From an uncultured bacterium (GTDB taxonomy: Bacteria > Chloroflexota > UBA5177 > JANWHV01), in NCBI GenBank assembly GCA_963827235.1, contig CAWHAE010000012.1, positions 1,152,001-1,216,000 on the forward strand: DNA of 64,000 bases, given 5' to 3'. Each line of letters begins with the position of its first letter. The stretch's first letter is position 1. The position numbers were made by a program, and so were the translations under genes. The notes below the pieces were generated by a model. It was not told the origin of the DNA and searched no databases. It saw only the letters and a program-made list of their open reading frames with translations. This document shows positions 2,559 through 51,200 of this stretch, piece after piece.

Positions 2559-2587
2559 AGTATGGGCCGGTTCCACCATGCTGTCAA
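2559..2587 (-). promoter_or_regulatory. island signature promoter TTGACA-N17-CATACT
   Basis: Minus strand: AGATATTTgatcgtaaag TTGACA gcatggtggaaccgGCC CATACT. Confidence 0.7.
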
Positions 2588-2706
2588 CTTTACGATCAAA
2601 TATCTAACCCTGTGCAAGGCGTCGCGCGACTTCCTCGCGGTCTAAAGGGTGAGTGATATCAGGAAGACGCAAATGATATGCGAGCAGGCGGCGGGCACCA
2701 CGCCTG

Positions 2707-3363
2707 TCACGCAAGCGGCCGCACGAAGTCGACCGTCGCCCACAGGCAGCACGAGCTACCTCCGACCACGCACAAATGCCAGATAGCATGTGCTTCAAAC
2801 ACGCCGGGCCGCGGCCACGGGCGATCGAGCAGGAAGATCAGGGCTCCAATCGTATACACGACGCCGCCAGCCACGAACCACGCGACGCTCGCGGGCGGCA
2901 GGGCTCGAATGATGGCCGGCAGGGCGGCGAGCGCCACCCACCCCATGGCGACGTACAGCCCGGTGGAGAGCCAGACAGGTCCGTGCAGCCACCACACCTT
3001 GAGTACCAGCCCGACCAGAGCGATGCCCCAAACCGTGCCAAGCAGACCCCAGCGCCAGCCTTGCTGCAGCTCGACAAGACACACAGGCGTGTAGGTCCCG
3101 GCAATGAAGACGAACACCAGGACGCAGTCGAGTCGCAGGAGCCGCTCCATGCCCGCGTGCGAGATGTGGAGCGCATGATAGAGGGTACTCGCCACATAGG
3201 AGGCGAGCTGGCTCGTGCCGTAGATGCCCAGGCCGACCAGCGCCCAGCAGCTACCGGTCCGGCTACCGAGCCATAGGAGCAGGATGAGCGCGGCAACGGA
3301 CAACACGCTCCCAATGAGGTGGGTAATAGCGTTGGCCGGCTCTCGAAGCGAGCTCATCTTCAC
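2707..3363 (-). CDS. hemolysin III / PAQR family membrane protein
   Basis: EPANAITHLIG, STLYH, RLD...FIAGTYTP and HAIWH motifs; ~7 hydrophobic segments. Confidence 0.9.
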   Translation of the reverse strand: MKMSSLREPANAITHLIGSVLSVAALILLLWLGSRTGSCWALVGLGIYGTSQLASYVASTLYHALHISHAGMERLLRLDCVLVFVFIAGTYTPVCLVELQQGWRWGLLGTVWGIALVGLVLKVWWLHGPVWLSTGLYVAMGWVALAALPAIIRALPPASVAWFVAGGVVYTIGALIFLLDRPWPRPGVFEAHAIWHLCVVGGSSCCLWATVDFVRPLA

Positions 3364-3590
3364 CGCCCCTGGCCCCAGTTTGGCCGTGCACTATCGAAGC
3401 ACATGAAACAGCATGAGCTCGGCCGGCGGCATACGTCAAGAGACGCACCGCGACCCAGTGCGGAGGCGATTTCAACCGAGCCTTACCTCGCGTTGCCTGC
3501 CGGTCCGGCTACTGCATGCCCGGCATTGCGCCGCCCATCCTGAGCACAGTCAGGGCGCGCTGCGGCATCGGCTCGACCAAATCCGGGCAC

Positions 3591-3625
3591 AAAGGAGGAG
3601 ATTCCCGTAGGAACCTCCTTCTCTT
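3591..3625 (-). terminator. probable terminator hairpin downstream of the csp gene
   Basis: Imperfect inverted repeat aaaggaggagattcc-cgta-ggaacctccttctctt. Confidence 0.45.
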
Positions 3626-3877: not shown

Positions 3878-4334
3878 AACGTGCTCTTTCTGCCGTGCGA
3901 GGAGGATCTGTGAGAGGTCTGGCCCAGCGCCAAACAGTCGGGAGGCTCCTGTGGTGACGTCTCACTATACCATGTTTGGCCGAATAACGGTTTGGCGTGC
4001 CGTCGAAGTCGTAGAACATGGACCTTCAAGATCGAATCACGCACCGTCCCCACAGGGCGCCGAGTCGAGGCGACCGACCGGCATGGAGGAACTATACTCT
4101 GGTTACAAGTGCGGAAGTCCAGGTATGCTTGAGCTTGAACGTGTGAAGATGTTCAAAGCAAAGCCGGGCGGCAGCCCCCGTCGTCCCCAGCGACATCATC
4201 CTTACATCCATTGATGGCCGTGCCGGCTTGTGCGTCCGAATCACGTGAGGGCAAGGGGAGCAGCGCAGGCGACTGCGGACCCCGTAACGAAACGAGTGGC
4301 TTTGATGGCTTTGCTAGTGGAGACTGCGCCGAAC

Positions 4335-5045
4335 ATGGTCCTGCCGCCGCCAGGCGCGTGGGTATCGGATGGCCGGCCGGTGTCCGTGTTGATTGTCGAC
4401 GATCAGGCGCTGATGGGAGCGGGCCTGCGTTCCATTCTGCAGTCAAGCCCGGACATACACGTAGTCGGCGGAGCTCAGACCGGGCCTGACGCATTAATAC
4501 AGGCGGTTGCACTCAAACCGATGGTCGTTCTCCTGGATACCAGAGCGCCCCAGGCCGGCCGCATGGAAGCCATCCGCGGGTTGAAAGCCCAGCATGCGAT
4601 GGGGGCGATCATCATGATGTCGAGGCGCGACGATGGGTCCGGCATGCTCGACGCGCTACAGGCAGGTGCCAGCGCTTATCTCCTGCACGACTGCAGTCGA
4701 GAGCTACTTCTGCATACGATCGCGGCTGTTGCCAACGGAGGAGCGCTTGTCCAGGCATCATCGTTCCGCGGCAGCCATCTGATGCGCTTCGCCGGTGCCG
4801 GCCGTCAGCCAACCGGCGGTAAGCGCAGCGATCGTCCGGGCCTCGCAACCGAGCCGCTGACCAGCCGCGAAGAAGCCATTCTGCGCCTGGTGGCAGATGG
4901 AACGACCAACCGGGGCATCGCCGACGTCCTGTGTTTCGCCGAGGTTACGATCAAGAAGCACGTGCAAACCATCATCGGTAAGCTGAGCGCGTCCGACAGG
5001 ACACATGCCGCCGTGATCGCCGTGCGGGCGGGACTGATCGACTGA
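4335..5045 (+). CDS. NarL/LuxR-family response regulator (atypical receiver)
   Basis: VLIVDD...VLLD receiver plus LTSREEAILRLVADGTTNRGIA...TIKKHV HTH; start codon uncertain. Confidence 0.9.
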   Translation: MVLPPPGAWVSDGRPVSVLIVDDQALMGAGLRSILQSSPDIHVVGGAQTGPDALIQAVALKPMVVLLDTRAPQAGRMEAIRGLKAQHAMGAIIMMSRRDDGSGMLDALQAGASAYLLHDCSRELLLHTIAAVANGGALVQASSFRGSHLMRFAGAGRQPTGGKRSDRPGLATEPLTSREEAILRLVADGTTNRGIADVLCFAEVTIKKHVQTIIGKLSASDRTHAAVIAVRAGLID

Positions 5046-5909: not shown

Positions 5910-5937
5910 TCGACATTCGGGCCGACCTGCCCATAGT
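5910..5937 (+). promoter_or_regulatory. degenerate copy of the signature promoter (SPFH copy 1)
   Basis: GAGCTTCTT...TCGACA-N16-(GCC)CATAGT; homologous to the promoter of SPFH copy 2. Confidence 0.5.
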
Positions 5938-6026: not shown

Positions 6027-7046
6027 ATGGGAGTAGAAATCGCCCTGGCCATCGTGGCAGTACTGTTTGTGACGTTGCTTGCAAGGACGATTCGCATCAT
6101 ACCGCAGGCGCGCGTCGGTGTCGTGCAACGCCTTGGGGCCTTTCACAGTGCCTCCGAAAGCGGGCTGATCGTGGTACTGCCGTTCATCGACAAGATGCTG
6201 CCGCTGCTGGACATGCGCGAGCAGGTGGTCAACTTCCCGCCGCAACCGGTAATTACGTCGGACAACGTGACCATCAACGTCACGACCGTGGTCTACTATC
6301 AGATTCTCAACGCGAAGGACGCGAGCTATCAGGTCGCCAACTTGCTGCAGGCGATGGAGCAGATCGCGCAGACCACGTTGCGGAACGTGATGGGCAGCCT
6401 GTCGCTGGACCGGAGCTTGACCAGTCGCGACGAGGTCAATTCCCAGCTGCGCCTCGTGCTCGACGAAGTGACCGAGAAGTGGGGCGTGCGGATCACGCGC
6501 GTGGAGCTCAAGGATATCAGCCCGCCCAAGGACATCCAGCTGGCGATGGAAAAGCAGATGCAGGCGGAGCGGAACAAGCGGGCCACGATCCTGACCGCGG
6601 AAGGCGAGGCGCAGGCCGCGATCTTGCGCGCGGACGGCGCACAGAAAGCCCTGGTGATTGCCAGCGAAGGCCAGCGACAGGCGGCGATCTTGCGCGCTCA
6701 GGGAGATGCCCAGGCCCTGCTCACCGTGCAGAAGGCGCAGGCGGAAGCCGTGCACATGGTGTTCGAGGCCGTCAACTCCTCGGGTGCCACTCCGGAGGCG
6801 ATGCAGTACCAGTACATGCAGATGCTACCGAAGCTGGCCGACAGTCCGGCGAACAAGGTGTTTATCGTGCCGGCGGACATGGCAGGGCTGGCGGGGCTAG
6901 CCGGACAGGCACTGCATGAGGGACATACGCCAGCCTTCGCCGCCGGTGCACCCGAGGCGCCGGCCGAGACCGAGGACGGGCAAGGGCTGCCGCGGTTGGT
7001 TGCCGGGGCCGATGCACAGGCGCCCGGCGCAAGCACGGCGGTGTGA
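6027..7046 (+). CDS. SPFH/band-7 (stomatin/QmcA-like) membrane protein, copy 1
   Basis: N-terminal TM, then PPQPVITSDN, TTLRNVMG, KQMQAERNKRATILTAEG. Confidence 0.95.
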   Translation: MGVEIALAIVAVLFVTLLARTIRIIPQARVGVVQRLGAFHSASESGLIVVLPFIDKMLPLLDMREQVVNFPPQPVITSDNVTINVTTVVYYQILNAKDASYQVANLLQAMEQIAQTTLRNVMGSLSLDRSLTSRDEVNSQLRLVLDEVTEKWGVRITRVELKDISPPKDIQLAMEKQMQAERNKRATILTAEGEAQAAILRADGAQKALVIASEGQRQAAILRAQGDAQALLTVQKAQAEAVHMVFEAVNSSGATPEAMQYQYMQMLPKLADSPANKVFIVPADMAGLAGLAGQALHEGHTPAFAAGAPEAPAETEDGQGLPRLVAGADAQAPGASTAV

Positions 7047-7074: not shown

Positions 7075-7300
7075 GGCGCACCCGTGGCCCGAATGCACTG
7101 CTCGCGGACCAGTCCCACCGGCATTGTCCAGATGAGCTTCATGTCTAGCCGCGCTGCCCAACCAGCGGCCCGGCCAATAGCCGCAGTCTATTGAGTCTAT
7201 GTCTTGACACGTTTATTGAACCCGCTCATACTGCAGACACCGCCTCTCGGCTCTCGCGCCGGTGCGCTGGCGAAGCGTGGAGAACGCAACGCGGTGACGC
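7075..7300 (+). repeat. copy 1 of a ~200-bp control region (palindrome CAATAG-N7-CTATTG at 7175..7193; promoter TTGACA-N17-CATACT at 7204..7232)
   Basis: Clear nucleotide similarity to ~45195..45370 and ~51020..51200 (cattgtccagatgagcttca...caatagcc..agtctattgagtctat.tcttgacac...catactgcagac). Confidence 0.85.
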
Positions 7301-7361: not shown

Positions 7362-7754
7362 ATGGTGCAACAGCATGCGGGCGCTGTCCAGCCTCTCGCG
7401 GCCGGACAGGGGATCCCTCGCGCGCAATGGCCCAGATTCTTCGAACACATCAGTAGAGAGTATGGAGGAGAGCAGGCGACGCTCGAGCTGGCCGATATGG
7501 AATCGGGCGACTCCGTTCTAGCCACGTACCCACGTTTTCGCAGCATCGCGGCGGACGAGGACTACAACCAGAACCGTATCGCGATAGTTCTGGAGAATGC
7601 GTCCGGTGACCCTACGATGCACACGCTGTCGAAAGCAACTCAGGTACGGTTTGCCGATGCGCTGCGATCCACGCTTGCTACGCTGACCATGGCCACCATG
7701 TCCGGTACGGTCGCCGTGCTGCACTTCGCTCACCCGCCATCGCCCGGGCAGTGA
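7362..7754 (+). CDS. DUF5335-like protein
   Basis: IPRAQWPRFFEHISREY..ATLEL...GD pattern; AAGGAGG RBS. Confidence 0.7.
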   Translation: MVQQHAGAVQPLAAGQGIPRAQWPRFFEHISREYGGEQATLELADMESGDSVLATYPRFRSIAADEDYNQNRIAIVLENASGDPTMHTLSKATQVRFADALRSTLATLTMATMSGTVAVLHFAHPPSPGQ

Positions 7755-8167: not shown

Positions 8168-8470
8168 ATGTCCACACGGATCGCGTTGACTATCCGCCCC
8201 TTGAATGACCATGTCGTGATCAGGCCGGCGAACAAGGAAGAAGTGAGCGCGGCAGGCGTCATCCTGCCGGACACCGCCAAGGAGAAGCCCCAGAAGGGCA
8301 CCATCGTGGCAGCCGGGCCGGGTCGCATTCTCGACAGCGGCACCCGCCAGGCGCTCGAGGTCTCGGTTGGCGAGGAAGTTCTCTACGCAAAGTATGCCGG
8401 CACCGAGGTGAAGCTCGAGGGTGAAGACTATCTGATCCTGTCCGAGAAGGACATTCTGGCCGTAGTCTGA
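8168..8470 (+). CDS. groES: co-chaperonin GroES
   Basis: IRPLNDHVVI, GVILPDTAKEKPQKG, KYAGTEVK, EKDILAVV. Confidence 0.98.
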   Translation: MSTRIALTIRPLNDHVVIRPANKEEVSAAGVILPDTAKEKPQKGTIVAAGPGRILDSGTRQALEVSVGEEVLYAKYAGTEVKLEGEDYLILSEKDILAVV

Positions 8471-8532
8471 GGCGCGTTCCTGCACTGAGGCAGGAAGGCA
8501 AACGGTCGGCACAGGCTGTGCCGACCTAGTAG

Positions 8533-10166
<1,634 letters not shown>

Positions 10167-12084: not shown

Positions 12085-12241
12085 AGTCTTCCCGCCGGCA
12101 ACGCGTCGCCTTGCCCGCAGGATTGGCGAGCCCGCACCTACCAATCACCCTTGTCCGTGTGCAAGGCACGGTGTCTCTTGCTCGAAGGCCGCGCGCAGCC
12201 GTGGTAAGCAAAAGCACCTGGTACGACGTGGGTTCCTATGA

Positions 12242-12270
12242 AGTATGAGCGTGTAGCGGCGCAGTGTCAA
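12242..12270 (-). promoter_or_regulatory. island signature promoter
   Basis: Minus strand: AGGATATTTCaagaATAG TTGACA-N17-CATACT. Confidence 0.7.
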
Positions 12271-13715: not shown

Positions 13716-13745
13716 AGCATGGGCCGCCCAGGGGCCTAGCGTCAA
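13716..13745 (-). promoter_or_regulatory. island signature promoter (variant)
   Basis: Minus strand: AGGATATTTCgtagATAG TTGACG-N18-(GCC)CATGCT. Confidence 0.6.
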
Positions 13746-16413: not shown

Positions 16414-16442
16414 TTGACATGTGGCTGCCCGGCGCCCATACT
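16414..16442 (+). promoter_or_regulatory. island signature promoter (pspA)
   Basis: AAGATCTTCgatgTATAG TTGACA-N17-(GCC)CATACT. Confidence 0.7.
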
Positions 16443-23723: not shown

Positions 23724-23752
23724 TTGACACTGGCCCTTTGGGAGCCCATACT
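23724..23752 (+). promoter_or_regulatory. island signature promoter
   Basis: AGAGGATggttagtcTATAC TTGACA-N17-(GCC)CATACT. Confidence 0.7.
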
Positions 23753-25206: not shown

Positions 25207-25235
25207 TTGACATATTCGGGCCCAGAGCGCATACT
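25207..25235 (+). promoter_or_regulatory. island signature promoter
   Basis: GAGAGATaaatcagctTATAC TTGACA-N17-CATACT. Confidence 0.65.
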
Positions 25236-27647: not shown

Positions 27648-27676
27648 AGTATGGGCGGGTTGGACCCTCGTGTCAA
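27648..27676 (-). promoter_or_regulatory. island signature promoter (SPFH copy 2)
   Basis: Minus strand TTGACA cgagggtccaacccGCC CATACT. Confidence 0.7.
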
Positions 27677-30317: not shown

Positions 30318-30335
30318 CTTGGCACCACCTGGCTG

Positions 30336-32897: not shown

Positions 32898-32930
32898 GTA
32901 GTCCTCCTCCTGAGAAATCACTCTCAGGCT

Positions 32931-37463: not shown

Positions 37464-37525
37464 CGCTGTCTCCTTTACCTCCACAGGTCCGCCTGGCGTA
37501 GAAGGCGCACCTCGGATCTATGCAC

Positions 37526-37554
37526 AGTATGGGCCAGGATGGCGCTGGCGTCAA
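37526..37554 (-). promoter_or_regulatory. island signature promoter
   Basis: Minus strand TTGACG ccagcgccatcctgGCC CATACT. Confidence 0.7.
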
Positions 37555-39594: not shown

Positions 39595-39975
39595 ATGGAT
39601 GGTTTCTCCTCCGGGCTGTCGGCCGCCCCCTCCGCGCGGGAGGTGTTCGATATCCTGTGGGAGACAATGGCCGATATCCTTGGCACCGCGGCGACGGCAA
39701 CGCTCTTGCGTCGCGCCGCCAAGCGCGGCATCGCCCGCCATGCTGCGTTGACCGGCGTGAGCATCAGGCAGCAGGATTTGACCTACTCCTATGTGCTGCC
39801 CAGTTCCTGGGAACAGGAGTCAAACCAGCAGGCACTGGACGCGCTGCGCACGCTGGCACTGGAGTTGCGCCCCTTACTGATTGAAATGACCGGACCGGTT
39901 GTGATCAGGCGTCTCGGTCAGGTGGCGGCGCTGTCCACTTTATGGTCCGTCTTGCAGGAGGAGGTTCGGACGTGA
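39595..39975 (+). CDS. small protein translationally coupled to the KaiC-like ATPase
   Basis: ILGTAATATLLRRA...LRPLLIEMTGPVVIRRL; its stop overlaps the GTG of the next gene; extended -10 TGCTATAAT at ~39529. Confidence 0.75.
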   Translation: MDGFSSGLSAAPSAREVFDILWETMADILGTAATATLLRRAAKRGIARHAALTGVSIRQQDLTYSYVLPSSWEQESNQQALDALRTLALELRPLLIEMTGPVVIRRLGQVAALSTLWSVLQEEVRT

Positions 39976-41462
39976 GTGCTGGCACGGTGGCGCCATCTAT
40001 CGAGCTCCTGGGTACCGGGAGCGCCGTCCTGGACAGCATTCTGGGCGGTGGTCTGCCTGCGCGCTCAGTAACCGTGATTGCCGGCCAGCCTGGATCCGGC
40101 AAGACGATTTTCGCGCTGCAACTCCAGTTCCATCTGGCGCGCCAGGGCAAGCGTTGCCTGTATTTCACGACCCTGTCGGAGCCCTCGCTCAAGCTGATCC
40201 ACTACATGCAGCTATTCTCCTTCTTCGATCAGCAACTGCTCGATGAGCAAATCCGCTTTGCGGATCTGGGCTCAGCTATTCGCGCCCGGGGAGCGAGCCA
40301 GGCGCTCGCCGAGATCAGCGCGCGGGTGGAACGCGAGGAGCCGGACCTGGTGATCATCGACAGCTTCAAGGCCATCTACGACCTGCTAGGCCCGCCCGGC
40401 GCCGGCCGCACTTTCGTCTACGATCTGGCCGTGTCGATGGCCGGCTGGGGGGCGACCACGCTGCTGGTCGGCGAGTATGCAGCACAGGATATCGTCACGG
40501 CGCCCGAGTTCTCTATTGCCGACGGCATCATTCGCCTGGGCAACCAACCGCAGGAGCTGACTGCCGTGCGGGTGCTGGAGGTGCTCAAGCTGCGCGGCGC
40601 CAATTGCATGACGGGCCAGCACTTCTTCGAGATCACCGAAGATGGGCTGGTTGTCTACCCACGTGTACGCGCCCCAGAGCTCAGCGTGACGGTGCCAGCC
40701 GGCAGCGCCGAGCGTTCCTCGACCGGTATCACCGGACTGGACGAGCTGCTGCATGGCGGTTTGCCGCACCGCAGCTGCACTCTGGTGCAAGGCGGCACCG
40801 GGACAGGGAAGACTCTATTGGCCCTCAGTTTCCTCATCGACGGCGCTGCACGAGGCAAGCGCGGTGTGATATTCACCCTGGAAGAGACGCCCGAGCAACT
40901 CCACGACATCGCCAGGGGCTTCGGCTGGGACCTGCCGGCGTTGGAGGCCCAGGGGTTGGTGCTCGTCCACTACACGTCACCGGTCGAGCTCTCCACCGAC
41001 CGCTTCCTCAATGTAGCCCGAGGGGTCATTCAGGAGTGGCATGCCCAGAGGGCTGTGCTTGACAGTGTCACGAGTGCAGGGATGGGCGTGTCTTCCGAGC
41101 GGCGGTTCAAGGAGCTGATCTATTCCCTGACGAAGCACTTCCGCGCCTTGGGCGTCACGTCGGTCCTCACCATGGAGGTCCCCGAACTGTTCGGTACGTC
41201 GCAGCTGACCGGCCACGGCGTCTCCTCTATCGCGGATAACGTGATCCTCCTGCGGTTCGTCGAGATAGAAGCGCGCTTGGAGCGGGCGATTTCGGTACTC
41301 AAGGCGCGAGGTGTCCACCACGAGATGGAGCTGCGCCGATTCCGCATCACCGATAGCGGCTTCCAGGTTAATGGGCCGTTCACGCACTATCGTGGCGTGC
41401 TGACGGGCGTGCCGACGCTCGCTCCGGCGGGGCCACAGCAGAGCGAATCAGGCGAGCCATGA
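39972..41462 (+). CDS. KaiC-like double RecA-type ATPase (module A)
   Basis: GQPGSGKT and GGTGTGKT Walker A motifs, IIDSF/VLDSV, TLEET, GVSSIADNVILLRFVE, YRGVLTGVPT. Confidence 0.92.
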   Translation: MSAGTVAPSIELLGTGSAVLDSILGGGLPARSVTVIAGQPGSGKTIFALQLQFHLARQGKRCLYFTTLSEPSLKLIHYMQLFSFFDQQLLDEQIRFADLGSAIRARGASQALAEISARVEREEPDLVIIDSFKAIYDLLGPPGAGRTFVYDLAVSMAGWGATTLLVGEYAAQDIVTAPEFSIADGIIRLGNQPQELTAVRVLEVLKLRGANCMTGQHFFEITEDGLVVYPRVRAPELSVTVPAGSAERSSTGITGLDELLHGGLPHRSCTLVQGGTGTGKTLLALSFLIDGAARGKRGVIFTLEETPEQLHDIARGFGWDLPALEAQGLVLVHYTSPVELSTDRFLNVARGVIQEWHAQRAVLDSVTSAGMGVSSERRFKELIYSLTKHFRALGVTSVLTMEVPELFGTSQLTGHGVSSIADNVILLRFVEIEARLERAISVLKARGVHHEMELRRFRITDSGFQVNGPFTHYRGVLTGVPTLAPAGPQQSESGEP

Positions 41463-42710
41463 GCACGGTCTCTGCTGTTCTTGGCACGGCAAGGCCGGTG
41501 ACGCGCGCCCTCTACGACGTAGCGCAGCTCCTGGAAGCGACCCAGAATGCCGAGACGCGCGTGCGAAGAGTGCTGACGCTGTTAGGGGAGATGGTTCCCT
41601 ACGACCAATGCGTGCTTCTCTGTGCCACAGAGGTGGCCATGCCCCGGATGACGTCGCTACCTCCTCTCGAAGAAGGCCCGGCGTCAGAGGTTAGCGCCGC
41701 GCTCGATAGCTTGTTGCAGTTGCTGAGGGAATCCGCGAGCGACCAGGCCGGTGCCGGCCTGCCGTCCTCCGCTGCGGGCGCTTTGAGCGGTGCATCTCAC
41801 CTGGCAGTACCGCTCGTCGCCTTGAACGAGGTGATCGGGATCCTGGCCGTGTGGCAGCGAGTCCCGGACGCCTACGGGGAAGTGGACGTGGGCCTGCTGT
41901 CGGTGGTTGCCGCGCAGCTTGCCTCCTACATGGCCGGACTCACGGCGCGCGATATGCTGGACCGCATGGTCGCAGCGGTGGCGCACGACCTCGGCAATCC
42001 GCTGATGAGTATCTCCGGTGTGAGCCAATTCCTGCAGCGGCACGTAGGACAACTGGGCGAGCCGGAGCGAGAACGATTTGCGCATGGCTTGAAGACCATC
42101 GAGACTACCACGTGGAGCATGACTACGCAACTCAACGAGCTGCTCGACTACGCGCGAGCGCAGACGGGTCGCTTGCTCGATCTGGACACCGAGCCTACCG
42201 ACGTCGTGGCGCTGCTTCGGCAGACAGTGGATGAATACCAGCGCTCGACCGAACGGCATACCCTGGTGCTGCAGACCGCCGAGGAGACGATTGTGACCAT
42301 GGTCGATCCGCGCCATCTGGGGCGTGCGGTCGCCAGTCTCCTCGTCAACGCCATCAAGTACAGTCCGGAGGGGGGACAGATCGTGGTCTCGGTCTCGCGG
42401 GCCGTCGGGATCCGACGGCCGGTGGTTGAGCATAACGATAGCCGACAATGGGCTCGGCATTCCTCGTGCCGACTTGCCGCACCTGTTTGAACAGTATTAC
42501 CGAGCCAGCAACGTAGCAACCACGATTCCCGGCTCCGGCATCGGACTTGCGAACGCTCGTCACACGATCGAGCGGCACAGCGGCACCATCACCATCGATA
42601 GTGCCGAGGGAGCGGGCACGACTGTCACCGTTCAACTGCCGCTGCTTCCGGCCGAGGTGCAGCCGACCTACGTCGCAGGCCAGGCAGCGATAGCGCCGGA
42701 ACAGGGCTGA
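41459..42710 (+). CDS. GAF-domain sensor histidine kinase (one +1 frameshift at ~42408)
   Basis: GAF (HLAVPL..VIGIL), H-box VAHDLGNPL, NAIKYSP; next frame gives DNGLGIP...GSGIGL. Confidence 0.9.
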
Positions 42711-43274: not shown

Positions 43275-44932
43275 TCCTGCTCCTTGTTCGCTTCGCGGGC
43301 CATCGGCTGCCGGTCTCGTGCTACGGCGCGAGCGGGTGTGGCCGCTGACCGCGCCCGCGACCGCGCTGGGCCGGAATTCACCCTGCTCCCGCTCGATGCC
43401 TGCCAGTAATCCCGGCGCACTCTCCCCGGTCGAGCGCACCGCTATGCCCGCAGGCGCGGCTATCGTGAACTCGCGCAAACTGAGGTCGTGCGCCGAGAAT
43501 CGCATCTTGAGCACCGACAACACCCGGTAGAAGTGCCCGCGATAGATCACGCCCTGCAGCCACAGCACGTTCTCCGCGATGCCGCGAGCTCAGGTCCGTC
43601 TCCAGCTCCAGGTCCGACCCCGCAAGCGGGCCCGTCTCTTTCGTGAACAGCGCGCTGATCCGCCGCCGCTGCAGGGCGGCAATCAATGCCGAGAGGTAGT
43701 TCTGCACCCGCCGCGGACTGCTCCCTTCGCTCACCGCCCGCTCGACCACGGCGATGCTGTCGATGACCAGCCGCCGCGCCCCCGTGCCGTCGAGCGCACC
43801 CAGCAACTGGTCGGCCAGCGCGTCGGCATCCAGCTCTACCGCCGGATAGTGCAGCAGCGTCAGACCGCCTCCGGGCGCCAGCGCGGCCCGCAGCTCCTGG
43901 CCCAGGTTGAAGGCATCCGCCTTGAGCAGCAGCTGGCGCCGGTCCTCGTGAAACCCCAGGAACACTACCGGCTCGCCCGCCCGTACCCCGGCCAGGGCAA
44001 AGTGCAGGCCCAGCAGCGTCTTGCCTGAGCCCCCGCTGCCGATCACGATGGTGGTCGTGGCACGCGTCAGCCCACCCCCAAGCAGCGCATCCAGGGCCGG
44101 AAGGTCAAAGGTCGCCCGCTCGAGCGCTGCCGCCTCGACAGCCGCCGCCGGCTCGCCGTCGTCTCGGTCCGCCGCCGTCACGGCCTGGCGGCGCCTGTCG
44201 CACGACCCGGGCCTCCAGTCGCGGCGAGGTCACTACCCCCGCGCTACTCAGCTCCAGGCTGTGCAGACCCGACAGCGGCGTGGCACCCCGCGCCTTCACC
44301 ACCTCCAACCGCCGCCGCTGCCGCTCGCCGTCCACGCCAAAGTGCAGCCCGATGATCGTGTCCGCCGTCGTCGCCTCCGGAAAGAACTGCGGATCCCGAA
44401 TCTCCGCCTCGGCGGTGATGATGGTGGTCGTCTCCTGCGCGCTCAGCGTGGTGCCGACGTCGAACAGGAACTGCCGCCCTGCCAGCGGCTCCGCGTCGAC
44501 GGCCCGCATGCCGCTGAACCCGTCCAGCACCACCAGGCTCGCCCGCTCCGCCCGCACCAGATGGATCAGCGACTGGCTCGCTCCCGCCAGCCCGGCACTC
44601 AGAAACGGCTGCAGACTGAGCAGCTTCACCCGCTCGCCGATCAGCGTGGGATCGTAGAACGCGTAGGCACTCAGGTGCGCCAGCAGCTTGCTCGGCGCTT
44701 CCGACAGCACGCTGAAGATCAGCACCTGCCGCCCCGCCCGCGCCGCCGCCCAGGCCATCTGCAGGGCCAGCGTCGTCTTCCCCGAGCCCGGCGGCCCCAC
44801 CACGATCGCCAGTGTGCCGCGTGCCAGACCGCCGCCCAGAATCAGGTCGAGGTTCGGCACGCCGCTTGGGTCGACCACCCTCGGCGCCGCGTCCACGACC
44901 GTGCTCGACGTTACCTGCTTGAGCTCATGCAT
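43271..44932 (-). CDS. KaiC-like double ATPase, duplicate of 47730..49388 (three +1 insertions at ~44191, ~43580, ~43322)
   Basis: Near-identical nucleotide sequence to the intact copy; GPPGSGKT and GSGGSGKT. Confidence 0.85.
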
Positions 44933-44946
44933 GTAGCCCTCCCCAG

Positions 44947-45125
44947 TCACTTCACAGCCGTAGTGTGATTTGCCTCCTCCAACGTGGATGGCATGCTGGG
45001 TTTCCGCTCTGCCTCACCCCCGGGGAAGCACGAGAGCGATCGCGGTTCCGTGCCAGCCGTCTGCGCATGCCGCGGCCTTGCGCGGTGCACAGACTGCTTT
45101 CCACCCAGATAAGGAGCTTGGCCAT
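44947..45125 (-). pseudogene. internally deleted remnant of the MerR-PAS-histidine kinase gene
   Basis: MAKLL is joined directly to IWVESS, followed by a WHGTAIALVLP-like segment and ...AVK*, matching the first 5 and last ~65 codons of 49403..50992. Confidence 0.85.
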
Positions 45126-45194: not shown

Positions 45195-45370
45195 CATTAT
45201 CCAGATGTACCTCACACCTAACTGTACAATCATAGCAGCAACCAGGTACAATAGCCAGAGTCTATTGAGGCTATGTCTTGACACAGTGATTGGACCCGCC
45301 TATACTCCAGACACCGCCCCGGCTCTCGCGCCGAAGACGCACCGAGAATGCAACGCGGTACAGCTCTGGG
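45195..45370. repeat. copy 2 of the bidirectional control region (palindrome 45249..45267; TTGACA-N17-TATACT at 45278..45306)
   Basis: Aligned by eye with the 7075..7300 and 51020..51200 copies. Confidence 0.85.
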
Positions 45371-45642: not shown

Positions 45643-45990
45643 ATGCAGCACGGTAACGGTATCCATATTGAGAACAGCGAGCCGCAGAAGAGCGCCCTCG
45701 TCGACGGGCTGCTGCAAGACGGAATCGACCGCGCGGCATCCTGGCGAGCACGCCTACGGGAGTCGACGATGGCACGGCAGGCGGCCGAGCGTCGCTATGC
45801 CCGTGAGGGGTCGGCAGCAAGTGCCAACAGTCCCGAGTCCTCGGCCCTGGCCCGAGAACGAGCGGTTGTTCTCCGGATGGAGTTGACGCGCATCGTGGCC
45901 GAGGATCGGGCTTGGATGCAGCAGCATGGTGTCGAAATGCTCGAGCCTCTCACGCGCAAGCGCCGCTCAGAGAGAAGCACACAGCCTTAG
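45643..45990 (+). CDS. small helical hypothetical protein
   Basis: AAGGAGG RBS; 115 aa starting MQHGNGIHIENSEPQK. Confidence 0.6.
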   Translation: MQHGNGIHIENSEPQKSALVDGLLQDGIDRAASWRARLRESTMARQAAERRYAREGSAASANSPESSALARERAVVLRMELTRIVAEDRAWMQQHGVEMLEPLTRKRRSERSTQP

Positions 45991-46126: not shown

Positions 46127-47263
46127 CTATCGCGTACGGTCCCTCGCCTTTTCGCGTTTCTCCTGGTCACGCACGGTCTGCAATACGGGCTGCGGAGCCC
46201 GTCCGCGCAGCTCGCGCCAGGCTACCGTGCCCACCGCCTGCAACAAGCCGGCCAGCGGAGCAGCAAACAGAGCTCCCCAGATGCCGAACAGCTCGCTCCC
46301 CGCCACCAGGCCGATCAGCGCAGTTGCCGGATGGATGCCGACGGCCTTGCCCATCACGCGCGGGCCCACGATATCACCCTCGATGACGTGCACGACGGCG
46401 AAATAGGCAAGGACCACGAGCGAGAGAACCCAGCCCTGGAAGAACGCGACCAGGACGCATACGGCGCCGGAAACGAGCACGCCGATGATCGGAATGAACT
46501 CCATGAAGAAGGCGAGGACGCCCAGCAAGATGGCATAGGGGACGTGGAGGATCGACATCCCGCCGCCAACCAGTATTCCGATGAGCAGCGCCATGGTCAA
46601 CGTGCCGCGTATGTAGCCGCCCACCACCTGGTTCACAATACCGATCAGCTGGGTTGTGCGCTCGCGATATGCCCCGGGCGTCTCGCGGCGCAACCGCTGG
46701 GATATGCGTGGGCCGTTAGCCGTGAGATAGACACTGAGAATCAGAATGAGAATCATGTCGATGACCGTGTTGACGATCCCGGAGACGATTCCCAACGATT
46801 GCGTTGCAGCGGCCGTGCCCGTGCTCTGGAGATAGGTAATCGCCTGCTGCTGCGTGTGGTCGAGCTTCGCTTGAGTAACCCCGAAGGGTTTGAGCGCCGT
46901 AAGGAGCTGCGGCTCGAAGCGCTTGAGCTGAAGCTGGTATTTCGGCAGGTTGTCGACCAAGCTTGTGACCTGGTTTGCCGCCGTGTCCACGATCAGCGCG
47001 AGCAGCCCGAGAATCACGGCGAAGCCAAGCACGTAGGCCGCGGCAATCGCCAGCGGCCGCGGCATCCAGCGCGCCAACACCTTGACCAGCGGCGTGAGCG
47101 CGAACGCCACGATGCCGCCGAGCAGCAGCACCAGGATGGTCTTGGTGACGTGGGCGAGCAGCCATACGCCGACCACGAGCACGCCGGCCCAGGCCAGGAT
47201 GATCAGCGGCAGGTACAGCGCGCGCTGCCATGCCGCGGGCACCTTGTCAGTATCGGCGCTCAT
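46127..47263 (-). CDS. AI-2E family transporter
   Basis: AFALTPLV, GGYIRG, MEFIPIIG, IEGDIVGPRVMGKAVGIHP, FGIWGALFAAP. Confidence 0.93.
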   Translation of the reverse strand: MSADTDKVPAAWQRALYLPLIILAWAGVLVVGVWLLAHVTKTILVLLLGGIVAFALTPLVKVLARWMPRPLAIAAAYVLGFAVILGLLALIVDTAANQVTSLVDNLPKYQLQLKRFEPQLLTALKPFGVTQAKLDHTQQQAITYLQSTGTAAATQSLGIVSGIVNTVIDMILILILSVYLTANGPRISQRLRRETPGAYRERTTQLIGIVNQVVGGYIRGTLTMALLIGILVGGGMSILHVPYAILLGVLAFFMEFIPIIGVLVSGAVCVLVAFFQGWVLSLVVLAYFAVVHVIEGDIVGPRVMGKAVGIHPATALIGLVAGSELFGIWGALFAAPLAGLLQAVGTVAWRELRGRAPQPVLQTVRDQEKREKARDRTR

Positions 47264-47733
47264 CGTGATTCAGGGTGCCGATCCGACTGATCGTCCGCGG
47301 ACACCGGGCCCGTCGCGGCAGTGGGTTCGGGTGCCAGGAAGCGCCGCAGCACGACCTCCAGATCCTCAAGATGGAACGGCTTGCGCAGCACCGTGTCGGC
47401 ACCGGCCGCCCGAGCGCGGGGAAGGCTGGCGCCGGTCATCACGACGATCGGCGGCGCGCTCGTGCCGTCGCCCTTGGCATCCGCTCGCAACGCGGCAATG
47501 ACGGCCTCGCCATCCAGGTACGGCAGCATCAGGTCGAGGATGAGCAGCGCCGGACGCCGTGCCCGTGCGAGCTCCAGCGCCTCTCGCCCGTGCAGGGCGA
47601 TCAGCGGCGTGTAGCCCGCTTCGCGCACGATGAAGGCGACGGTCTCCGCCAGCGGCTCCTCGTCGTCGGCGATCAGCACCACGGCCGCCTCCCGTGCATC
47701 CTGGGATGCTTGCGTGCTGGTCGTGCCGCTCAT
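47260..47733 (-). CDS. single-domain CheY-like receiver, copy 1
   Basis: VLIADDEE, LILDLMLP, VVMT, KPF; ATGA overlaps on both sides. Confidence 0.92.
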   Translation of the reverse strand: MSGTTSTQASQDAREAAVVLIADDEEPLAETVAFIVREAGYTPLIALHGREALELARARRPALLILDLMLPYLDGEAVIAALRADAKGDGTSAPPIVVMTGASLPRARAAGADTVLRKPFHLEDLEVVLRRFLAPEPTAATGPVSADDQSDRHPESR

Positions 47734-49388
47734 GCCTGCTCCCTGTTCGCTTCGCGGGCCATCGCTTGCCGGTCTCGTGCACGGCGCGAGCGGGTGTGGC
47801 CGCTGACCGCGCCCGCGACCGCGCTGGGCCGGAATTCACCCTGCTCCCGCTCGATGCTCGCCAGCAATCCCGGCGCACTCTCCAGCGGACCGCGCACGGC
47901 AATGCCGGCGGGCGCGGCTATCGTGAACTCGCGCAGCGTGAGGTCGTGTGGCGAGTACCGCATCTTGAGCACCGACAACACCCGGTACAGCCGCCCGCGC
48001 AAGATCACGGCCTGCAGCCACACCACGTTCTCCGCTACACCCGAGCTCAGGTCCGTCTCCAGCTCCAGGTCGGACCCGGCAAGCGGGCCGGTCTCCTTCG
48101 TGAACAGCGCGCTGATCCGCCGCCGCTGCAGGGCGGCAATCAATGCCGAGAGGTAGTTCTGCACCCGCCGCGGACTGCTCCCTTCGCTCACCGCCCGCTC
48201 GACCACGGCGATGCTGTCGATGACCAGCCGCCGCGCCCCCGTGCCGTCGAGCGCACCCAGCAACTGGTCGGCCAGCGCGTCGGCATCCAGCTCTACCGCC
48301 GGATAGTGCAGCAACGTCAGACCGCCTCCGGGCGCCAGCGCGGCCCGCAGCTCCTGGCCCAGGTTGAAGGCATCCGCCTTGAGCAGCAGCTGGCGCCGGT
48401 CCTCGTGAAACCCCAGGAACACCACCGGCTCGCCCGCCCGTACCCCGGCCAGGGCAAAGTGCAGGCCCAGCAGCGTCTTGCCTGAGCCCCCGCTCCCGAT
48501 CACGATCGTGGTCGTGGCACGCGTCAGCCCACCCCCAAGCAGCGCATCCAGGGCCGGAAGGTCAAAGGTCGCCCGCTCGAGCGCTGCCGCCTCGACAGCC
48601 GCCGCCGGCTCGCCGTCGTCTCGGTCCGCCGCCGTCACGGCCTGGCGGGCCTGGCGCACGACCCGGGCCTCCAGTCGCGGCGAGGTCACTACCCCCGCGG
48701 CACTCAGCTCCAGGCTGTGCAGACCCGACAGCGGCGTGGCACCCCGCGCCTTCACCACCTCCAACCGCCGCCGCTGCCGCTCGCCGTCCACGCCAAAGTG
48801 CAGCCCGATGATCGTGTCCGCCGTCGTCGCCTCCGGAAAGAACCGCGGATCCCGAATCTCCGCCTCGGCGGTGATGATGGTGGTCGTCTCCTGCGCGCTC
48901 AGCGTGGTGCCCACGTCGAACAGGAACTGCCGCCCTGCCAGCGGCTCCGCGTCGACGGCCCGCATGCCGCTGAACCCGTCCAGCACCACCAAGCTGGCCC
49001 GCTCCGCCCGCACCAGATGGATCAGCGACTGGCTCGCTCCCGCCAGCCCGGCACTCAGAAACGGCTGCAGGCTGAGCAGCTTCACCCGCTCGCCGATCAG
49101 CGTGGGATCGTAGAACGCGTAGGCACTCAGGTGCGCCAGCAGCTTGCTCGGCGCTTCCGACAGCACGCTGAAGATCAGCACCTGCCGCCCCGCCCGCGCC
49201 GCCGCCCAGGCCATCTGCAGGGCCAGCGTCGTCTTCCCCGAGCCCGGCGGCCCCACCACGATCGCCAGTGTGCCGCGTGCCAGACCGCCGCCCAGAATCA
49301 GGTCGAGGTTCGGCACGCCGCTTGGGTCGACCACCCTCGGCGCCGCGTCCACGACCGTGCTCGACGTTACCTGCTTGAGCTCATGCAT
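47730..49388 (-). CDS. KaiC-like double RecA-type ATPase (module B)
   Basis: SGVPNLDLILGGGL, GPPGSGKT, RRLEVVKARG; LDALLGGGL, GSGGSGKT, LVIDSI, LSVLKMR; GGGGAGG RBS before ATG 49388. Confidence 0.92.
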   Translation of the reverse strand: MHELKQVTSSTVVDAAPRVVDPSGVPNLDLILGGGLARGTLAIVVGPPGSGKTTLALQMAWAAARAGRQVLIFSVLSEAPSKLLAHLSAYAFYDPTLIGERVKLLSLQPFLSAGLAGASQSLIHLVRAERASLVVLDGFSGMRAVDAEPLAGRQFLFDVGTTLSAQETTTIITAEAEIRDPRFFPEATTADTIIGLHFGVDGERQRRRLEVVKARGATPLSGLHSLELSAAGVVTSPRLEARVVRQARQAVTAADRDDGEPAAAVEAAALERATFDLPALDALLGGGLTRATTTIVIGSGGSGKTLLGLHFALAGVRAGEPVVFLGFHEDRRQLLLKADAFNLGQELRAALAPGGGLTLLHYPAVELDADALADQLLGALDGTGARRLVIDSIAVVERAVSEGSSPRRVQNYLSALIAALQRRRISALFTKETGPLAGSDLELETDLSSGVAENVVWLQAVILRGRLYRVLSVLKMRYSPHDLTLREFTIAAPAGIAVRGPLESAPGLLASIEREQGEFRPSAVAGAVSGHTRSRRARDRQAMAREANREQA

Positions 49389-49402
49389 GTAGTCCTCCCC
49401 AG

Positions 49403-50992
49403 TCACTTCACAGCCATGGCGCTCGTCACGGCCATGCCGCTCGTCACGGCCGTCTTCTGCCCTGCCCGTTTCGACGTACCGAGCATGCCCGGCTTCTGCG
49501 CTTCTCCGCCCAGGGGAAGCACGATCGCTACCACGGTCCCGTGCCAGCTGCTCGCCGAATCTTCCGCGTCGACAGCGGGCACACTCCGTTCCACCCAGAT
49601 GTGGCCGCCGTGCGCGGACACGATGGCCCGGCACACGTACAGGCCAAGCCCTGCACCCCGTGTCCCGGTCTCGGCATCGGGCGCCCGCCAGTAGCGATCG
49701 AACACGTGCGGCAGGGCGGCCGGCGCGATGCCTATGCCCGTATCCGCCACGCGCACCCACGCCCAGCCGCCGGCCTCATCCGGCGCCGCGTCCTTCGTCA
49801 CCGCCCCGTCGGCCGTCTGCACGGGCGGCGCTGCCGCCATCTCAAGTCGCACCTCGATCGTACCCCCGTCCGGTGAGTACTTGATCGCGTTGCTCAACAG
49901 ATTGTCTAGCACCTGTCGCAGCCGGATGCGATCGCCGGCCACCATCAGCGGTCCAGGCGGCCCCGCGACCGTGACCCGGTGCCGCGACGTCTGCTGCAGC
50001 GCATCTTCGGCCGCCTGCAGCGCCATTGCCGTCAGGTCCACGCCTTCCGGATCCAGGTCGTGAATGAGCAGTCCCTTGGTGGCCCGGGACGCGTCCAGCA
50101 CGGTCTGCATCACCCGAATCAGGTGCTCCGTGCTGCGCTCAGCGACAGCCAGGTGGTGCATGACCTGCTGTGTCGCCGCCTCGTCCCCCGCGCGCAGCCT
50201 GGCGCCGACATGGCGGGCCAGTTGCAGTCGCCCCAGAATGGTGGTCACCGGGTTGCGCAGATCATGCGCCGCCACCGCGAGCCAGTCCTCGGGCAGCAGA
50301 GAGGCATCCGGCGGCATCACGCGGCCCACGCCCACGGCGCCCGTAGACTGGCCCTCCTCGTCCCGCAGCGGTGTGACCGTCCACGACGTCTGCAATTGCT
50401 CGCCTGTCGCGCCGGGCAGCAGCAGCGTTACGTCCCGGTGCCGCGTGCCGGTCTGCGCGGCCCAGCGCAGCGGCAGCGTCTCCAGCGCGAGCGGCGGCAG
50501 CTCGCCGTCGAGGGAGCGCGCGGGTACGTCCGCTTCAAGATGCTCCGGCTCCAGGTGCAGCAGTGCCCGCAGGGCCGGATTCATCGAGGTAACACGTCCT
50601 TCGCGGTCTCCCACGACCACGAGGTCGGCCATTCCCGCGACCACCGCCTGCCAGTATGCCGCATCGCTCATCACCGCCGGTCCGTCGGCGCCCGGCAGGC
50701 CCGCGTAGTCCTCGGGTCCGGGCACCAGGGCGCCGCTGTCGAGCTCCTTCGCCACACGGCGCAGACTGCCCCGCCGCCCCGGCTTCAGCAGGGAGCGCGC
50801 GATGAGCCGCACGCGCGCCATGTCGTCGATCGAATACAAGCGCGTTGCCCTGGGCGATCGCAGGGGCCGCAGGATTCCGGCGTCCTCCCAGGAGCGCAGC
50901 CGCGGCGGCGGCACTCCGGTGAACGCCGCGACGTCGGCTATGAGGAAGGTGGCTTTCTGCTCGAGCACCGTCTCCTGAAGGAGCTTGGCCAT
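49403..50992 (-). CDS. MerR-type HTH - PAS - HisKA - HATPase fusion (soluble histidine kinase with a DNA-binding domain)
   Basis: IADVAAFTGVPPPRLRSWEDAGILRPLR...RLYSIDD; PAS (LVVVGDREGRVTSMNPA...PLRDEEG); AAHDLRNP; NAIKYSP, DTGIGI, GAGLGL; no TM segment. Confidence 0.92.
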   Translation of the reverse strand: MAKLLQETVLEQKATFLIADVAAFTGVPPPRLRSWEDAGILRPLRSPRATRLYSIDDMARVRLIARSLLKPGRRGSLRRVAKELDSGALVPGPEDYAGLPGADGPAVMSDAAYWQAVVAGMADLVVVGDREGRVTSMNPALRALLHLEPEHLEADVPARSLDGELPPLALETLPLRWAAQTGTRHRDVTLLLPGATGEQLQTSWTVTPLRDEEGQSTGAVGVGRVMPPDASLLPEDWLAVAAHDLRNPVTTILGRLQLARHVGARLRAGDEAATQQVMHHLAVAERSTEHLIRVMQTVLDASRATKGLLIHDLDPEGVDLTAMALQAAEDALQQTSRHRVTVAGPPGPLMVAGDRIRLRQVLDNLLSNAIKYSPDGGTIEVRLEMAAAPPVQTADGAVTKDAAPDEAGGWAWVRVADTGIGIAPAALPHVFDRYWRAPDAETGTRGAGLGLYVCRAIVSAHGGHIWVERSVPAVDAEDSASSWHGTVVAIVLPLGGEAQKPGMLGTSKRAGQKTAVTSGMAVTSAMAVK

Positions 50993-51019
50993 CTTGCACT
51001 CTCCTGTTTTGTGTGTGCA

Positions 51020-51200
51020 GACACGTGACCCGCGTGCACTGCCCTCGAACGAGTCTCCTCGCCATTGTCCAGATGAGCTTCAGACCTATACCATCCAGCA
51101 TACCAGCAGCCCGCACCAATAGCCAGAGTCTATTGAGTCTATATCTTGACACGTTGTGTGCACCCGCCCATACTGCAGACGCACTCCTCTCCACGCTCGC
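51020..51200. promoter_or_regulatory. copy 3 (native position) of the bidirectional control region
   Basis: CAATAG-N7-CTATTG at 51117..51135; rightward TTGACA-N17-CATACT at 51146..51174; leftward TGGCTA-N17-(TGG)TATGCT. Confidence 0.8.

Follow-up and report, generated by a model that had tools for sequence, protein, structure and literature searches.

Copies of a promoter-like motif, TTGAC(A/G)-N14-GCNCATACT, recur between genes in a 64-kb stretch of an uncultured soil Chloroflexota genome (genome G000, contig C12, positions 1152001–1216000; hereafter the window), and this raises the questions of whether they form a promoter class of their own and what would read it. The motif was found to be the core of a composite module that is confined to two genomic islands and precedes stress genes, and the sequence comparisons described below make it very probable that the module defines a real, co-regulated promoter class distinct from the housekeeping one. 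Positions given without a contig refer to the window, C numbers denote contigs, G001–G004 are congeners of G000, and L numbers denote genomic or soil-metagenome stretches.

Nine exact copies of the pattern were present in the window (2559−, 7204+, 12242−, 16414+, 23724+, 25207+, 27648−, 37526−, and 51146+), compared with a mean of 0.00 and a maximum of 0 in 100 dinucleotide shuffles, and GCCCATACT alone occurred seven times against 0.27 expected. Three further sites were degenerate: 5910+ (TCGACA-N13-GCCCATAGT), 13716− (TTGACG-N15-GCCCATGCT), and 45278+ (TTGACA-N14-GCCTATACT). The hexamer was CATACT in 9/12 sites, and the triplet before it was GCC in nine, GCT in two, and GCG in one. By codon-usage gene calls, all 12 sites were intergenic and each faced a co-oriented gene, at a distance of 42–337 nt for 11 of them; the gene called for 2559− lies 647 nt away, or ~413 nt with a longer TTG start. 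The initial annotation of this stretch had listed these 12 sites, with CATACT in nine, GCN always before it and GCC in nine, each oriented toward a downstream gene, and had named pspA, SPFH, lysyl-phosphatidylglycerol-type, PRC-barrel, and desaturase genes as targets; the coordinates, strands, counts, and orientations were all reproduced. It had missed a second island with the same signal on contig C17, two conserved AT-rich blocks 5′ of the −35 element, a possible weak site at 3410− (TTGACG-N15-GCTCATGCT) that has no AT block, and a partial module at 53424–53508 (−) (nhmmer E = 0.065). The partial module lies upstream of an unknown gene (52791–53270) and has a proximal-box-like ATATGGTAAGAGTCTTTTCGTGCTATACT and no TTGACA.

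The G000 assembly comprises 7.98 Mb in 21 contigs (65% G+C, 95.9% complete, 9% contamination). The exact pattern occurred 16 times in it, with nine copies in the window, seven in C17:74,160–141,340, and none elsewhere; the two islands, i.e., the window and the 74–150 kb region of C17, together make up 1.75% of the genome. They share some genes at 70–88% protein identity, yet they are not mutual copies, and G001 has orthologues of genes from both. In a weight-matrix scan, 21 of the 22 best matches fell in the islands, the exception being a TATACT site at C12:1519565. When 26 sites were used to build an nhmmer profile covering positions −105 to +10, all 27 matches at E < 1e-4 were in the islands, and outside them nothing fell below E = 0.48. 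Outside the islands, GCCCATACT was seen 40 times against ~53 expected from base composition (54 genome-wide), and 8 of these 40 were intergenic. The surroundings of the exceptional weight-matrix match (C12:1519543–1519593) are palindromic (TTGACAAATCGATT...), carry GCCTATACT on both strands, and are conserved in G003 (C414); this site has the appearance of a divergent promoter with an operator rather than of a class member.

Housekeeping-type promoters of the same genome share the −35 element and the spacing of the class and differ in the −10 region. Outside the islands, TTGACN-N17-TAnnnT was found at 230 intergenic positions versus 35 overlapping coding sequence, with frequencies of 0.35 for T-15, 0.42 for G-14, and 0.47 for C-13. 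The CAnnnT form was found at 34 intergenic and 185 coding positions, with ~18% expected for non-functional sequence. Since the C(-12) form has no intergenic enrichment outside the islands, the class is not the housekeeping consensus. In the 27 intergenic island sites, the frequencies were 100% for G-15, 89% for C-14, 74% for C-13, 85% for C-12, 100% for A-11, 93% for T-10, 85% for A-9, 81% for C-8, and 100% for T-7; T-12 occurred in only 15%, and G-15/C-14 stands in place of T/G. The commonest hexamers after TTGACA-N17 outside the islands were TAGAGT, TAGGAT, TACGAT, and TATAAT, and inside them CATACT made up 14 of 37. Two rRNA promoters read TTGACA..TAAGAT and TTGACA..TATATT and have no AT blocks; the two 16S loci (C9:~674,000 and C20:~254,900) thus have different promoters, in an assembly with the contamination given above. 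The initial annotation had proposed a distinct promoter class marking a stress regulon and had named equal frequency before housekeeping genes as the observation that would count against it; genome-wide, the copies are confined to the islands, and this, together with the TTGACA-N17-TAnnnT form of the housekeeping type, supports the proposal.

Alignment of 26 sites on the −35 element placed the motif within a module of ~135 bp. Two AT-rich blocks, at ~−120 to −91 and ~−65 to −36, stand in a background of 35% A+T, with a sharp edge near −120. The distal block reads roughly ATTAT..ATGAnnnnCTCAnnnYATAC, and the proximal block, with the consensus ATAGCTAGAGGATATTTCATCTAT(gg)TTGACA, abuts the −35 element and is imperfectly palindromic, its A/T patches being spaced by about one helical turn. 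The blocks are followed by the consensus TTGACA, a 17-bp gap to the hexamer, and an almost invariant extended −10 (G-15 C-14 C-13 C-12 A-11 T-10 A-9 C-8 T-7), and 3′ of the −10 most sites have nnGRAG-GA (a GRAGGA start region), with a purine 7 nt past the hexamer. The A+T content of the proximal/distal blocks was 0.60/0.60 versus 0.37/0.36 at the 230 housekeeping-type promoters (Mann-Whitney p ~5e-12 and 2e-11, respectively), and a proximal block of at least 55% A+T was present in 20/24 class sites versus 14/230 housekeeping sites. The leaders range from 42 to >300 nt. A leader RNA common to all sites was rejected, the leaders being different except within paralogue groups, and Rfam had no family at gathering score in the window or in L002–L004.

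The mean pairwise identity of the spacers was 0.319 versus 0.273 expected (325 pairs, 26 sites), and lenient single-linkage clustering on spacer or leader identity gave 13 groups among the 26 sites. With spacers this close to random and this many groups, duplication explains only part of the set, in agreement with the differing spacers and partial duplication described in the initial annotation.

Exact copies were also found in the congeners G001 (four) and G004 (one), and none in G002 or G003. Seven sites with AT-rich upstream blocks were examined in G001, where the targets include orthologues of the MprF-like protein (80%), the SLOG operon, the C17 methyltransferase, C17_118283 (67%), and FtsH (92%). 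In three G000–G001 and one G000–G003 orthologous promoter pairs, the 9-mer was identical at 9/9 positions and the −35 element at 5–6/6, with spacers 7–79% and distal flanks 21–41% identical; the sequence of the proximal box is retained between G000 and G001. A protein-first search found desaturase orthologues in three of the four congeners (G002, G003, and G004), and all four desaturase loci of these genomes and the metagenome locus L052 have TTGAC-N15-nnnCATACT upstream, with GCC before the hexamer in three and AGC in G002 (near-variant AGCCATACT). When the loci of G000, G003, G004, and L052 were aligned, 0/14 spacer columns and 7% of the upstream columns were invariant; the promoters of G003, G004, and L052 have the exact 9-mer and no AT-rich box. 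With the queries used, G001 yielded neither a desaturase nor a PRC-barrel orthologue. The PRC-barrel homologues of G003 and G004 (52–55% identity) carry CATACT without a TTGACA at 17 bp and lend no support to conservation in these genomes.

A first metagenome search pattern, the proximal box plus the core, gave no matches, and CTATNNTTGAC-N15-GCCCATACT gave 13 loci. Five of these lie 5′ of orthologues with 70–90% amino acid identity, namely BON, PRC-barrel (two loci), MprF-like, and C17_97194, and the same loci contain two extra sites outside the search pattern, before desaturase and glycosyltransferase genes. L045 has the module, and no homologue of its downstream open reading frame (ORF) was found; the other seven loci (L042, L043, L044, L047, L048, L049, and L051) were unrelated or uninterpretable. 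Matches with up to two mismatches numbered 12–20 per genome in G002–G004 versus 0–2 in the control, and those fetched were rejected as class members, being coding conservation (L025, L026) or ordinary promoters (a GreA-like gene). Among 400 other Chloroflexota genomes, a tally that takes in G343 and G226 with one match each, 41 had at least one exact copy and none more than four, so that G000 with 16 is an outlier. The members share the cis-element, its intergenic placement and orientation to genes, conservation at orthologues, and functionally coherent targets; as far as can be read from the DNA, the class is real and evolutionarily conserved, and it marks what appears to be a lineage-specific general-stress regulon.

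The 27 modules precede stress genes encoding PspA, SPFH, PRC-barrel/DUF2171, BON, Hsp20, DnaK-DnaJ, desaturase, MprF-like, and glycogen/sugar-uptake proteins. On C17, the targets are four PRC-barrel paralogues, DUF2171/PRC proteins, BON, Hsp20, DnaK-DnaJ, a methyltransferase, a sugar-binding protein whose gene is the first of an ABC operon, and a small protein encoded 5′ of a GlgB-like enzyme, with genes for Usp, hemerythrin, CDGSH, DUF1003, VIT1, MgtC, PPK2, phosphoketolase, and glycogen phosphorylase nearby. Other island genes encode a cold-shock protein, HlyIII, FtsH, Hsp20, GroES-GroEL, a cardiolipin-synthase-like PLD protein, three KaiC homologues, kinases, and receivers. Jointly, the targets suggest putative functions in membrane remodelling, in proteostasis, and in desiccation or dormancy. 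According to an excerpt of PMC9804601, PRC-barrel AvaK proteins are dehydration-induced in Anabaena via OrrA, and a Deinococcus PRC-barrel homologue is stress-regulated, under an extracytoplasmic function (ECF) sigma factor and a response regulator.

The window targets are DUF2171, two SPFH, DUF5335, two MprF-like LPG_synthase_TM, PspA-PspAA plus glycosyltransferase, SLOG/YAcAr, PRC-barrel, and fatty-acid desaturase genes, and genes for small unknown proteins. The site at 2559..2587 (−), an exact match (TTGACA-N14-GCCCATACT; nhmmer module E = 1e-8), belongs to a DUF2171 (PRC-barrel-like) gene at 1622–1912, or 1622–2146 with the longer start (Pfam E = 6e-4, below the cut-off). The SPFH gene 6027–7046 (SPFH/Band_7, E = 2.5e-39) is preceded by the site at 5910..5937 (+), which scored 15.6 bits with the position weight matrix and had no match with the nhmmer profile. 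Its promoter is a paralogue of that at 27648..27676 (−), which has an exact core and an nhmmer match and precedes the SPFH gene 26555–27550, 89–97% identical to the former. The core at 7204..7232 (+), TTGACA-N14-GCTCATACT, stands before the DUF5335 gene 7362–7754, and its spacer and leader are related to those of 45278, 51146, and C17:134843. The same core at 12242..12270 (−) has a strong proximal box, ATAGCTATAGGATATTTCA (nhmmer E = 1.3e-16), and is followed by small ORFs (11728–12217) and a 96-aa gene (11308–11598) with no Pfam family; a homologue of the latter gene adjoins the ECF sigma gene in G001.

The two MprF-like LPG_synthase_TM genes have separate sites. The gene 12402–13586 (Pfam E = 2.5e-10) follows 13716..13745 (−), with the core TTGACG-N15-GCCCATGCT, which was recovered by the nhmmer profile without being in its training set (E = 1.4e-7). 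The gene 23970–25043 follows 23724..23752 (+) and a conserved leader of ~220 nt, and the core of this site is retained at the orthologues in G001 (L008) and L052. The leader (23753–23872) is 78% conserved in G001 over 260 nt and is ~75–77% similar both to 3′ coding parts of the SPFH genes (6771–6853 and 26724–26806) and to the leader C17:113908–113987 behind the C17:114001 promoter; the shared stretch may be an SPFH gene remnant or a common regulatory leader.

The PspA-PspAA fusion gene 16722–17747, with the glycosyltransferase gene 18088–19428 behind it, follows 16414..16442 (+) (TTGACA-N14-GCCCATACT). The site at 25207..25235 (+) (TTGACA-N14-GCGCATACT) lies before the SLOG/YAcAr gene 25569–25961, and a small ORF (25275–25553) may be the first gene transcribed from it; in its G001 orthologue (L024), the 9-mer is identical at 9/9 positions and the proximal box is retained, with a spacer 29% identical. 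The PRC-barrel gene 36957–37484 has the core TTGACG-N14-GCCCATACT at 37526..37554 (−), which is also found 5′ of 73%-identical orthologues in the metagenome loci L050 and L053. Adjoining this promoter, 28488–35917 encodes three very large repeat-rich, secreted-looking proteins (DUF5719, MG2, and TIG matches) that are 64–74% identical in G001 and L050. The desaturase gene 51308–52267 has an exact core at 51146..51174 (+). The site at 45278..45306 (+), a variant core with T at −12 (TTGACA-N14-GCCTATACT), precedes a 115-aa gene (45643–45990) of no known family, a homologue of which precedes an ECF sigma gene in L053, behind a TTGACA-N17-TATACT promoter. Small proteins of ~115–130 aa with no Pfam match are encoded at 45643–45990, at C17 ~113300–113700, and in L053 at 4633–4986 (−), and this family has motif or TATACT-variant promoters; since the L053 gene is directly upstream of the ECF sigma gene, the small protein could be a sigma-associated factor.

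The motif was not found in the upstream regions of the window genes ftsH, hsp20, groES, and the NarL-type regulator, and the G001 ftsH has it. The window hsp20 (23298–23723, −) is preceded by an ordinary promoter, TTGACA-N17-TATACA, whose spacer contains an inverted repeat (TTTTCACTAGAAAGTG), unlike the C17-island Hsp20 gene, which carries a class promoter. Upstream of groES, TATGAT is followed by a CIRCE-like half-site (GAGTGCTAA), so control there is apparently of the HrcA type and not of the motif type. In the same region (8168–9997), groES is followed by groEL split into overlapping frames, 8545–9939 and 9035–9997, and C19 carries a full 535-aa groEL to which the second part is 99% identical; the split gene represents a recent copy with a frameshift or else an error of assembly.

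Which factor reads the class was considered from the sigma genes of G000. The genome has 27 sigma region-2 matches; the window contains none of them and the C17 island contains one. Five are RpoD-like: SigA (616 aa) and paralogues of 580, 332 (C16:384864–385862), 297, and 293 aa (C9:1134652–1135533). Region 4.2 contains TRERIRQ, which we take to be a reader of TTGACA, in SigA and three paralogues, including the 332-aa and 293-aa group-2 proteins, and TSERVRQ in the 297-aa paralogue (C10). In G001, where the class is present, only SigA and orthologues of the 332-aa and 293-aa sigmas were found, which makes these three the candidates if the reader belongs to group 1 or 2; the 580-aa and 297-aa sigmas, not found in G001 (rated 87% complete), were set aside as required readers. 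The 332-aa and 293-aa paralogues are present in every congener.

Candidate signalling and regulatory genes lie in or beside the islands. A histidine kinase gene (49403–50992), a KaiC homologue (47730–49406), and a receiver-only response regulator gene (47260–47733) form an operon (47260..50992, −; Pfam) that diverges from the desaturase promoter, and the same layout is seen in L052. The kinase has an N-terminal MerR-type helix-turn-helix (MerR-PAS-HisKA-HATPase), an unusual DNA-binding kinase architecture, and adjoins KaiC. A paralogous operon with 71–88% identity is found in the C17 island, with syntenic orthologues in G001, and in L012 a motif-like promoter, TTGACT-N14-ACGCATACT with a ATAGGGAGAGG box, is found 92 nt 5′ of the kinase gene. 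At 39942..42490 (+), a second KaiC homologue (39942–41462) is accompanied by a GAF-HisKA protein (41498–42490; Pfam). The intervening stretch 42825–44950 is a partial duplication of the KaiC operon, in which 44105–44950 is 95% identical to the N-terminal half of KaiC 47730–49406 and 42825–43568 joins a KaiC C-terminal piece with a receiver. A NarL/LuxR-type response regulator (4305..5045, +; Pfam REC+GerE, with the NCBIfam NarL-like match below the cut-off) was the only DNA-binding regulator identified among the Pfam-scanned window genes and is a candidate box binder; its candidacy is weakened by the lack of a close orthologue in the congeners (best 50–53% identity). An OmpR-type response regulator (C17:72170–72874) lies at the edge of the C17 island, and it and the NarL-type protein are linked to the AT boxes, as candidates, by position only.

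The mechanism we favour, with a probability of roughly 0.4, is a group-2 sigma holoenzyme that reads the extended −10 with the help of a box-binding activator. RNA polymerase would bind through a sigma factor whose region 4.2 reads TTGACA, and GCNC and C-8 would be read directly by a non-housekeeping holoenzyme, the likeliest being those of the 332-aa and 293-aa RpoD paralogues; these positions would disfavour sigma-A, which here prefers T-12 with TGn. In G000 and its nearest congener, a sequence-specific activator on the phased AT-rich boxes would add recruitment, possibly as the output of the island-encoded histidine kinase–KaiC–receiver module. Of the parts of this mechanism, direct protein readout of the extended −10 is likely, because low promoter strength alone would not require the single fixed base seen at each of five positions and because the 9-mer is exact at promoters that have no AT boxes. 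The participation of a box-binding activator, at least in this genome and the nearest congener, is also rather probable from the sequence-specific boxes, and the assignment of the reader to the group-2 sigmas is tentative.

Several observations weigh against this mechanism or against the data on which it is built. The window encodes no sigma factor, and G002 and G003, which have no exact motif copy, also possess the 332-aa and 293-aa sigmas. At RQAxTR and VH..E of regions 2.4/3.0, which presumably contact −12 and the extended −10, both proteins are identical to SigA, so their sequences offer no basis for a C-12/GC preference. For the 14 larger sigma genes, the 400 nt of upstream sequence contained no copy of the motif, and there is hence no sign of sigma autoregulation. 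A maximum of four exact copies in each of 400 Chloroflexota genomes is odd if a widely conserved sigma is the reader, and an activator-dependent sigma-A class would account for the sequence-specific AT boxes just as well. Part of the set consists of paralogous copies, and the gene calls used for the placement of sites came from our own crude codon-usage caller. Finally, the core in G003, G004, and the metagenome sites was partly ascertained by core-containing patterns, and the independent part of that evidence is the position before orthologous genes.

An activator-dependent sigma-A class is the strongest of the rival explanations, although we regard it as unlikely. Sigma-A would use the perfect −35 element with A-11/T-7, C-12 and the absence of TGn would keep basal activity low, and a box-bound OmpR- or NarL-type regulator below the KaiC-kinase module would switch all the promoters on. 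TTGACA with 17-bp spacing is indeed housekeeping geometry, the class-specific AT blocks (−62 to −38 and −120 to −91) have patches about one helical turn apart and are retained between G000 and G001, regulators and kinases are found in or beside both islands (NarL-type 4305–5045, OmpR-type C17:72170–72874), and the group-2 sigmas have no distinctive residues. Weakness, however, selects against T-12/TG and would not fix bases at −15, −14, −13, −12, and −8, and the desaturase promoters of G003, G004, and L052 retain the 9-mer without an AT box, i.e., the core is conserved where the presumed activator site is absent.

The island-encoded ECF sigma (309 aa with an N-terminal extension; C17:141712–142641) is an improbable reader. 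No other sigma gene was found in the two islands, motif promoters adjoin it on C17, a 63% orthologue in G001 (contig C10) lies 1.3 kb from two motif promoters in an island syntenic with window positions 28–50 kb, a 48% homologue lies between motif promoters in L053, and a Deinococcus PRC-barrel homologue is placed under an ECF sigma and a response regulator in the excerpt of PMC9804601 mentioned above. Against this, the motif has the group-1/2 signature (TTGACA, 17 bp, nAnnnT). ECF promoters typically have AAC in the −35 element and a CGT-type −10, and ECF sigma genes are usually autoregulated; the class consensus has neither AAC nor CGT, and the upstream region of the island ECF gene has no motif and contains TTGACA/TATAAT-like elements instead. 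Its NCBIfam BldN-family score is below the cut-off (99.7 versus 206 bits), and that family therefore gives no target motif to go by. We regard the protein as a network member or modulator rather than the reader.

Least probable of all is that no dedicated factor exists and an ancestral strong promoter cassette was spread by duplication of paralogous stress-gene families, with inherited letters and with AT blocks that are generic UP-like or nucleoid-protein sites: several sites do precede paralogous genes, the islands share genes at 70–88%, and G000 is a copy-number outlier (16 exact copies versus at most 4 in each of 400 genomes), but the spacers and flanks are randomised while 14–15 specified positions are fixed, unrelated families carry the module (PspA, desaturase, DnaK, methyltransferase, sugar-binding protein, SLOG), orthologous promoters elsewhere keep the core at 70–80% protein identity, and drift to the better T-12 is seen in only ~4/27 sites.

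The class was compared with known systems. The E. coli RpoS (sigma-S) consensus is ~TG-N0-2-CYATAMT, with C-13 and C-8 (TCTATACTT). CCATACT of the class fits CYATAMT (C-13 74%, C-12 85%, A-9 85%, C-8 81%, and T-7 100% of the 27 sites), and in both cases the promoter would be close to the housekeeping type, with a few positions making it selective for an RpoD-like sigma, and the regulon would be a general-stress one that includes glycogen and membrane genes. RpoS differs in being proteobacterial, and no G000 protein reached the cut-off of the RpoS equivalog (TIGR02394, NCBIfam; the best group-2 sigmas scored 289.9 and 272.4 bits versus 378.7). Moreover, the class −35 element is a perfect TTGACA whereas that of RpoS is weak, and the class has fixed G-15/C-14 and not T/G, C over T at −12, and large AT-rich boxes.

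The general stress response of alphaproteobacteria relies on EcfG, with the consensus GGAAC-N16-CGTT. There too, dozens of stress genes, with many PRC-barrel, BON, DUF, and Usp proteins among their products, carry a single promoter signature; unlike the class, the EcfG promoter is of the ECF type, and no PhyR-NepR-type partner switch was seen here, none having been looked for. The sigma-28 (FliA-WhiG) promoter is TAAA-N15-GCCGATAA. Assignment to this type was rejected: GCCCATAC fits 6/8 positions of its −10 part, and the −35 element is TTGACA, not TAAA; one site, C17:89678, has GCCGATACT. In cyanobacteria, KaiC acts on output through the KaiC-SasA-RpaA pathway, and here KaiC, a histidine kinase, and a receiver likewise adjoin the regulon. 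The AT-rich repeats beside the class −35 element also resemble OmpR-family sites. The excerpt of PMC9804601 describes PRC-barrel families co-induced in water stress via a response regulator (OrrA/AvaK), and PRC-barrel families are among the targets here. The OrrA and KaiC systems have no binding site or sigma factor in common with the class, the receiver beside KaiC here has no DNA-binding domain, and the KaiC module is linked to the promoters by gene neighbourhood only.

For RpoH (sigma-32), an excerpt of PMC10216364 gives the promoter form CTTGAA-N13-15-CCCCATnT, with a −35 consensus of CTTGAA, and the dnaK P1 scaffold CTTGAA-N14-CCCCATTTA. TTGA-A and the CCCAT run are common to both (C-14, C-13, and C-12 before A-11 and T-10), and the class targets include dnaK-dnaJ, hsp20, and, in G001, ftsH. 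The class TTGACA matches 5/6 of the −35 positions, its gap exceeds that of RpoH by one base, and the hexamers diverge over their last three positions, ACT in the class and TTA in RpoH; the class −35 element is TTGACA and not TTGAAA. No G000 protein reached the RpoH equivalog cut-off (TIGR02392; 155 and 158.7 bits versus 323.1), and most class targets are not classical heat-shock genes.

A bolder extension of the favoured reading, which we consider quite doubtful, is that the KaiC ATPase, the MerR-PAS kinase, and the receiver sense energy or water status and switch ~30 composite promoters on through the extended −10 (GCNCATACT) and the phased AT boxes, as a general stress response of the lineage's own with a holoenzyme/activator pair new to any phylum. 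If true, this response would be comparable in role to those of sigma-B, sigma-S, or EcfG and built differently.

A literature search in a limited collection returned nothing relevant on this motif or on stress sigma regulons of Chloroflexota, and promoter classes and stress regulons are essentially uncharted in this dominant and mostly uncultured soil phylum. The sharply defined cis-element makes a regulon readable from DNA alone, with ~30 candidate genes for desiccation, membrane stress, or dormancy, many of them of unknown function. Through gene neighbourhood, it may also give KaiC-type ATPases of non-cyanobacteria a defined set of promoters as their output.

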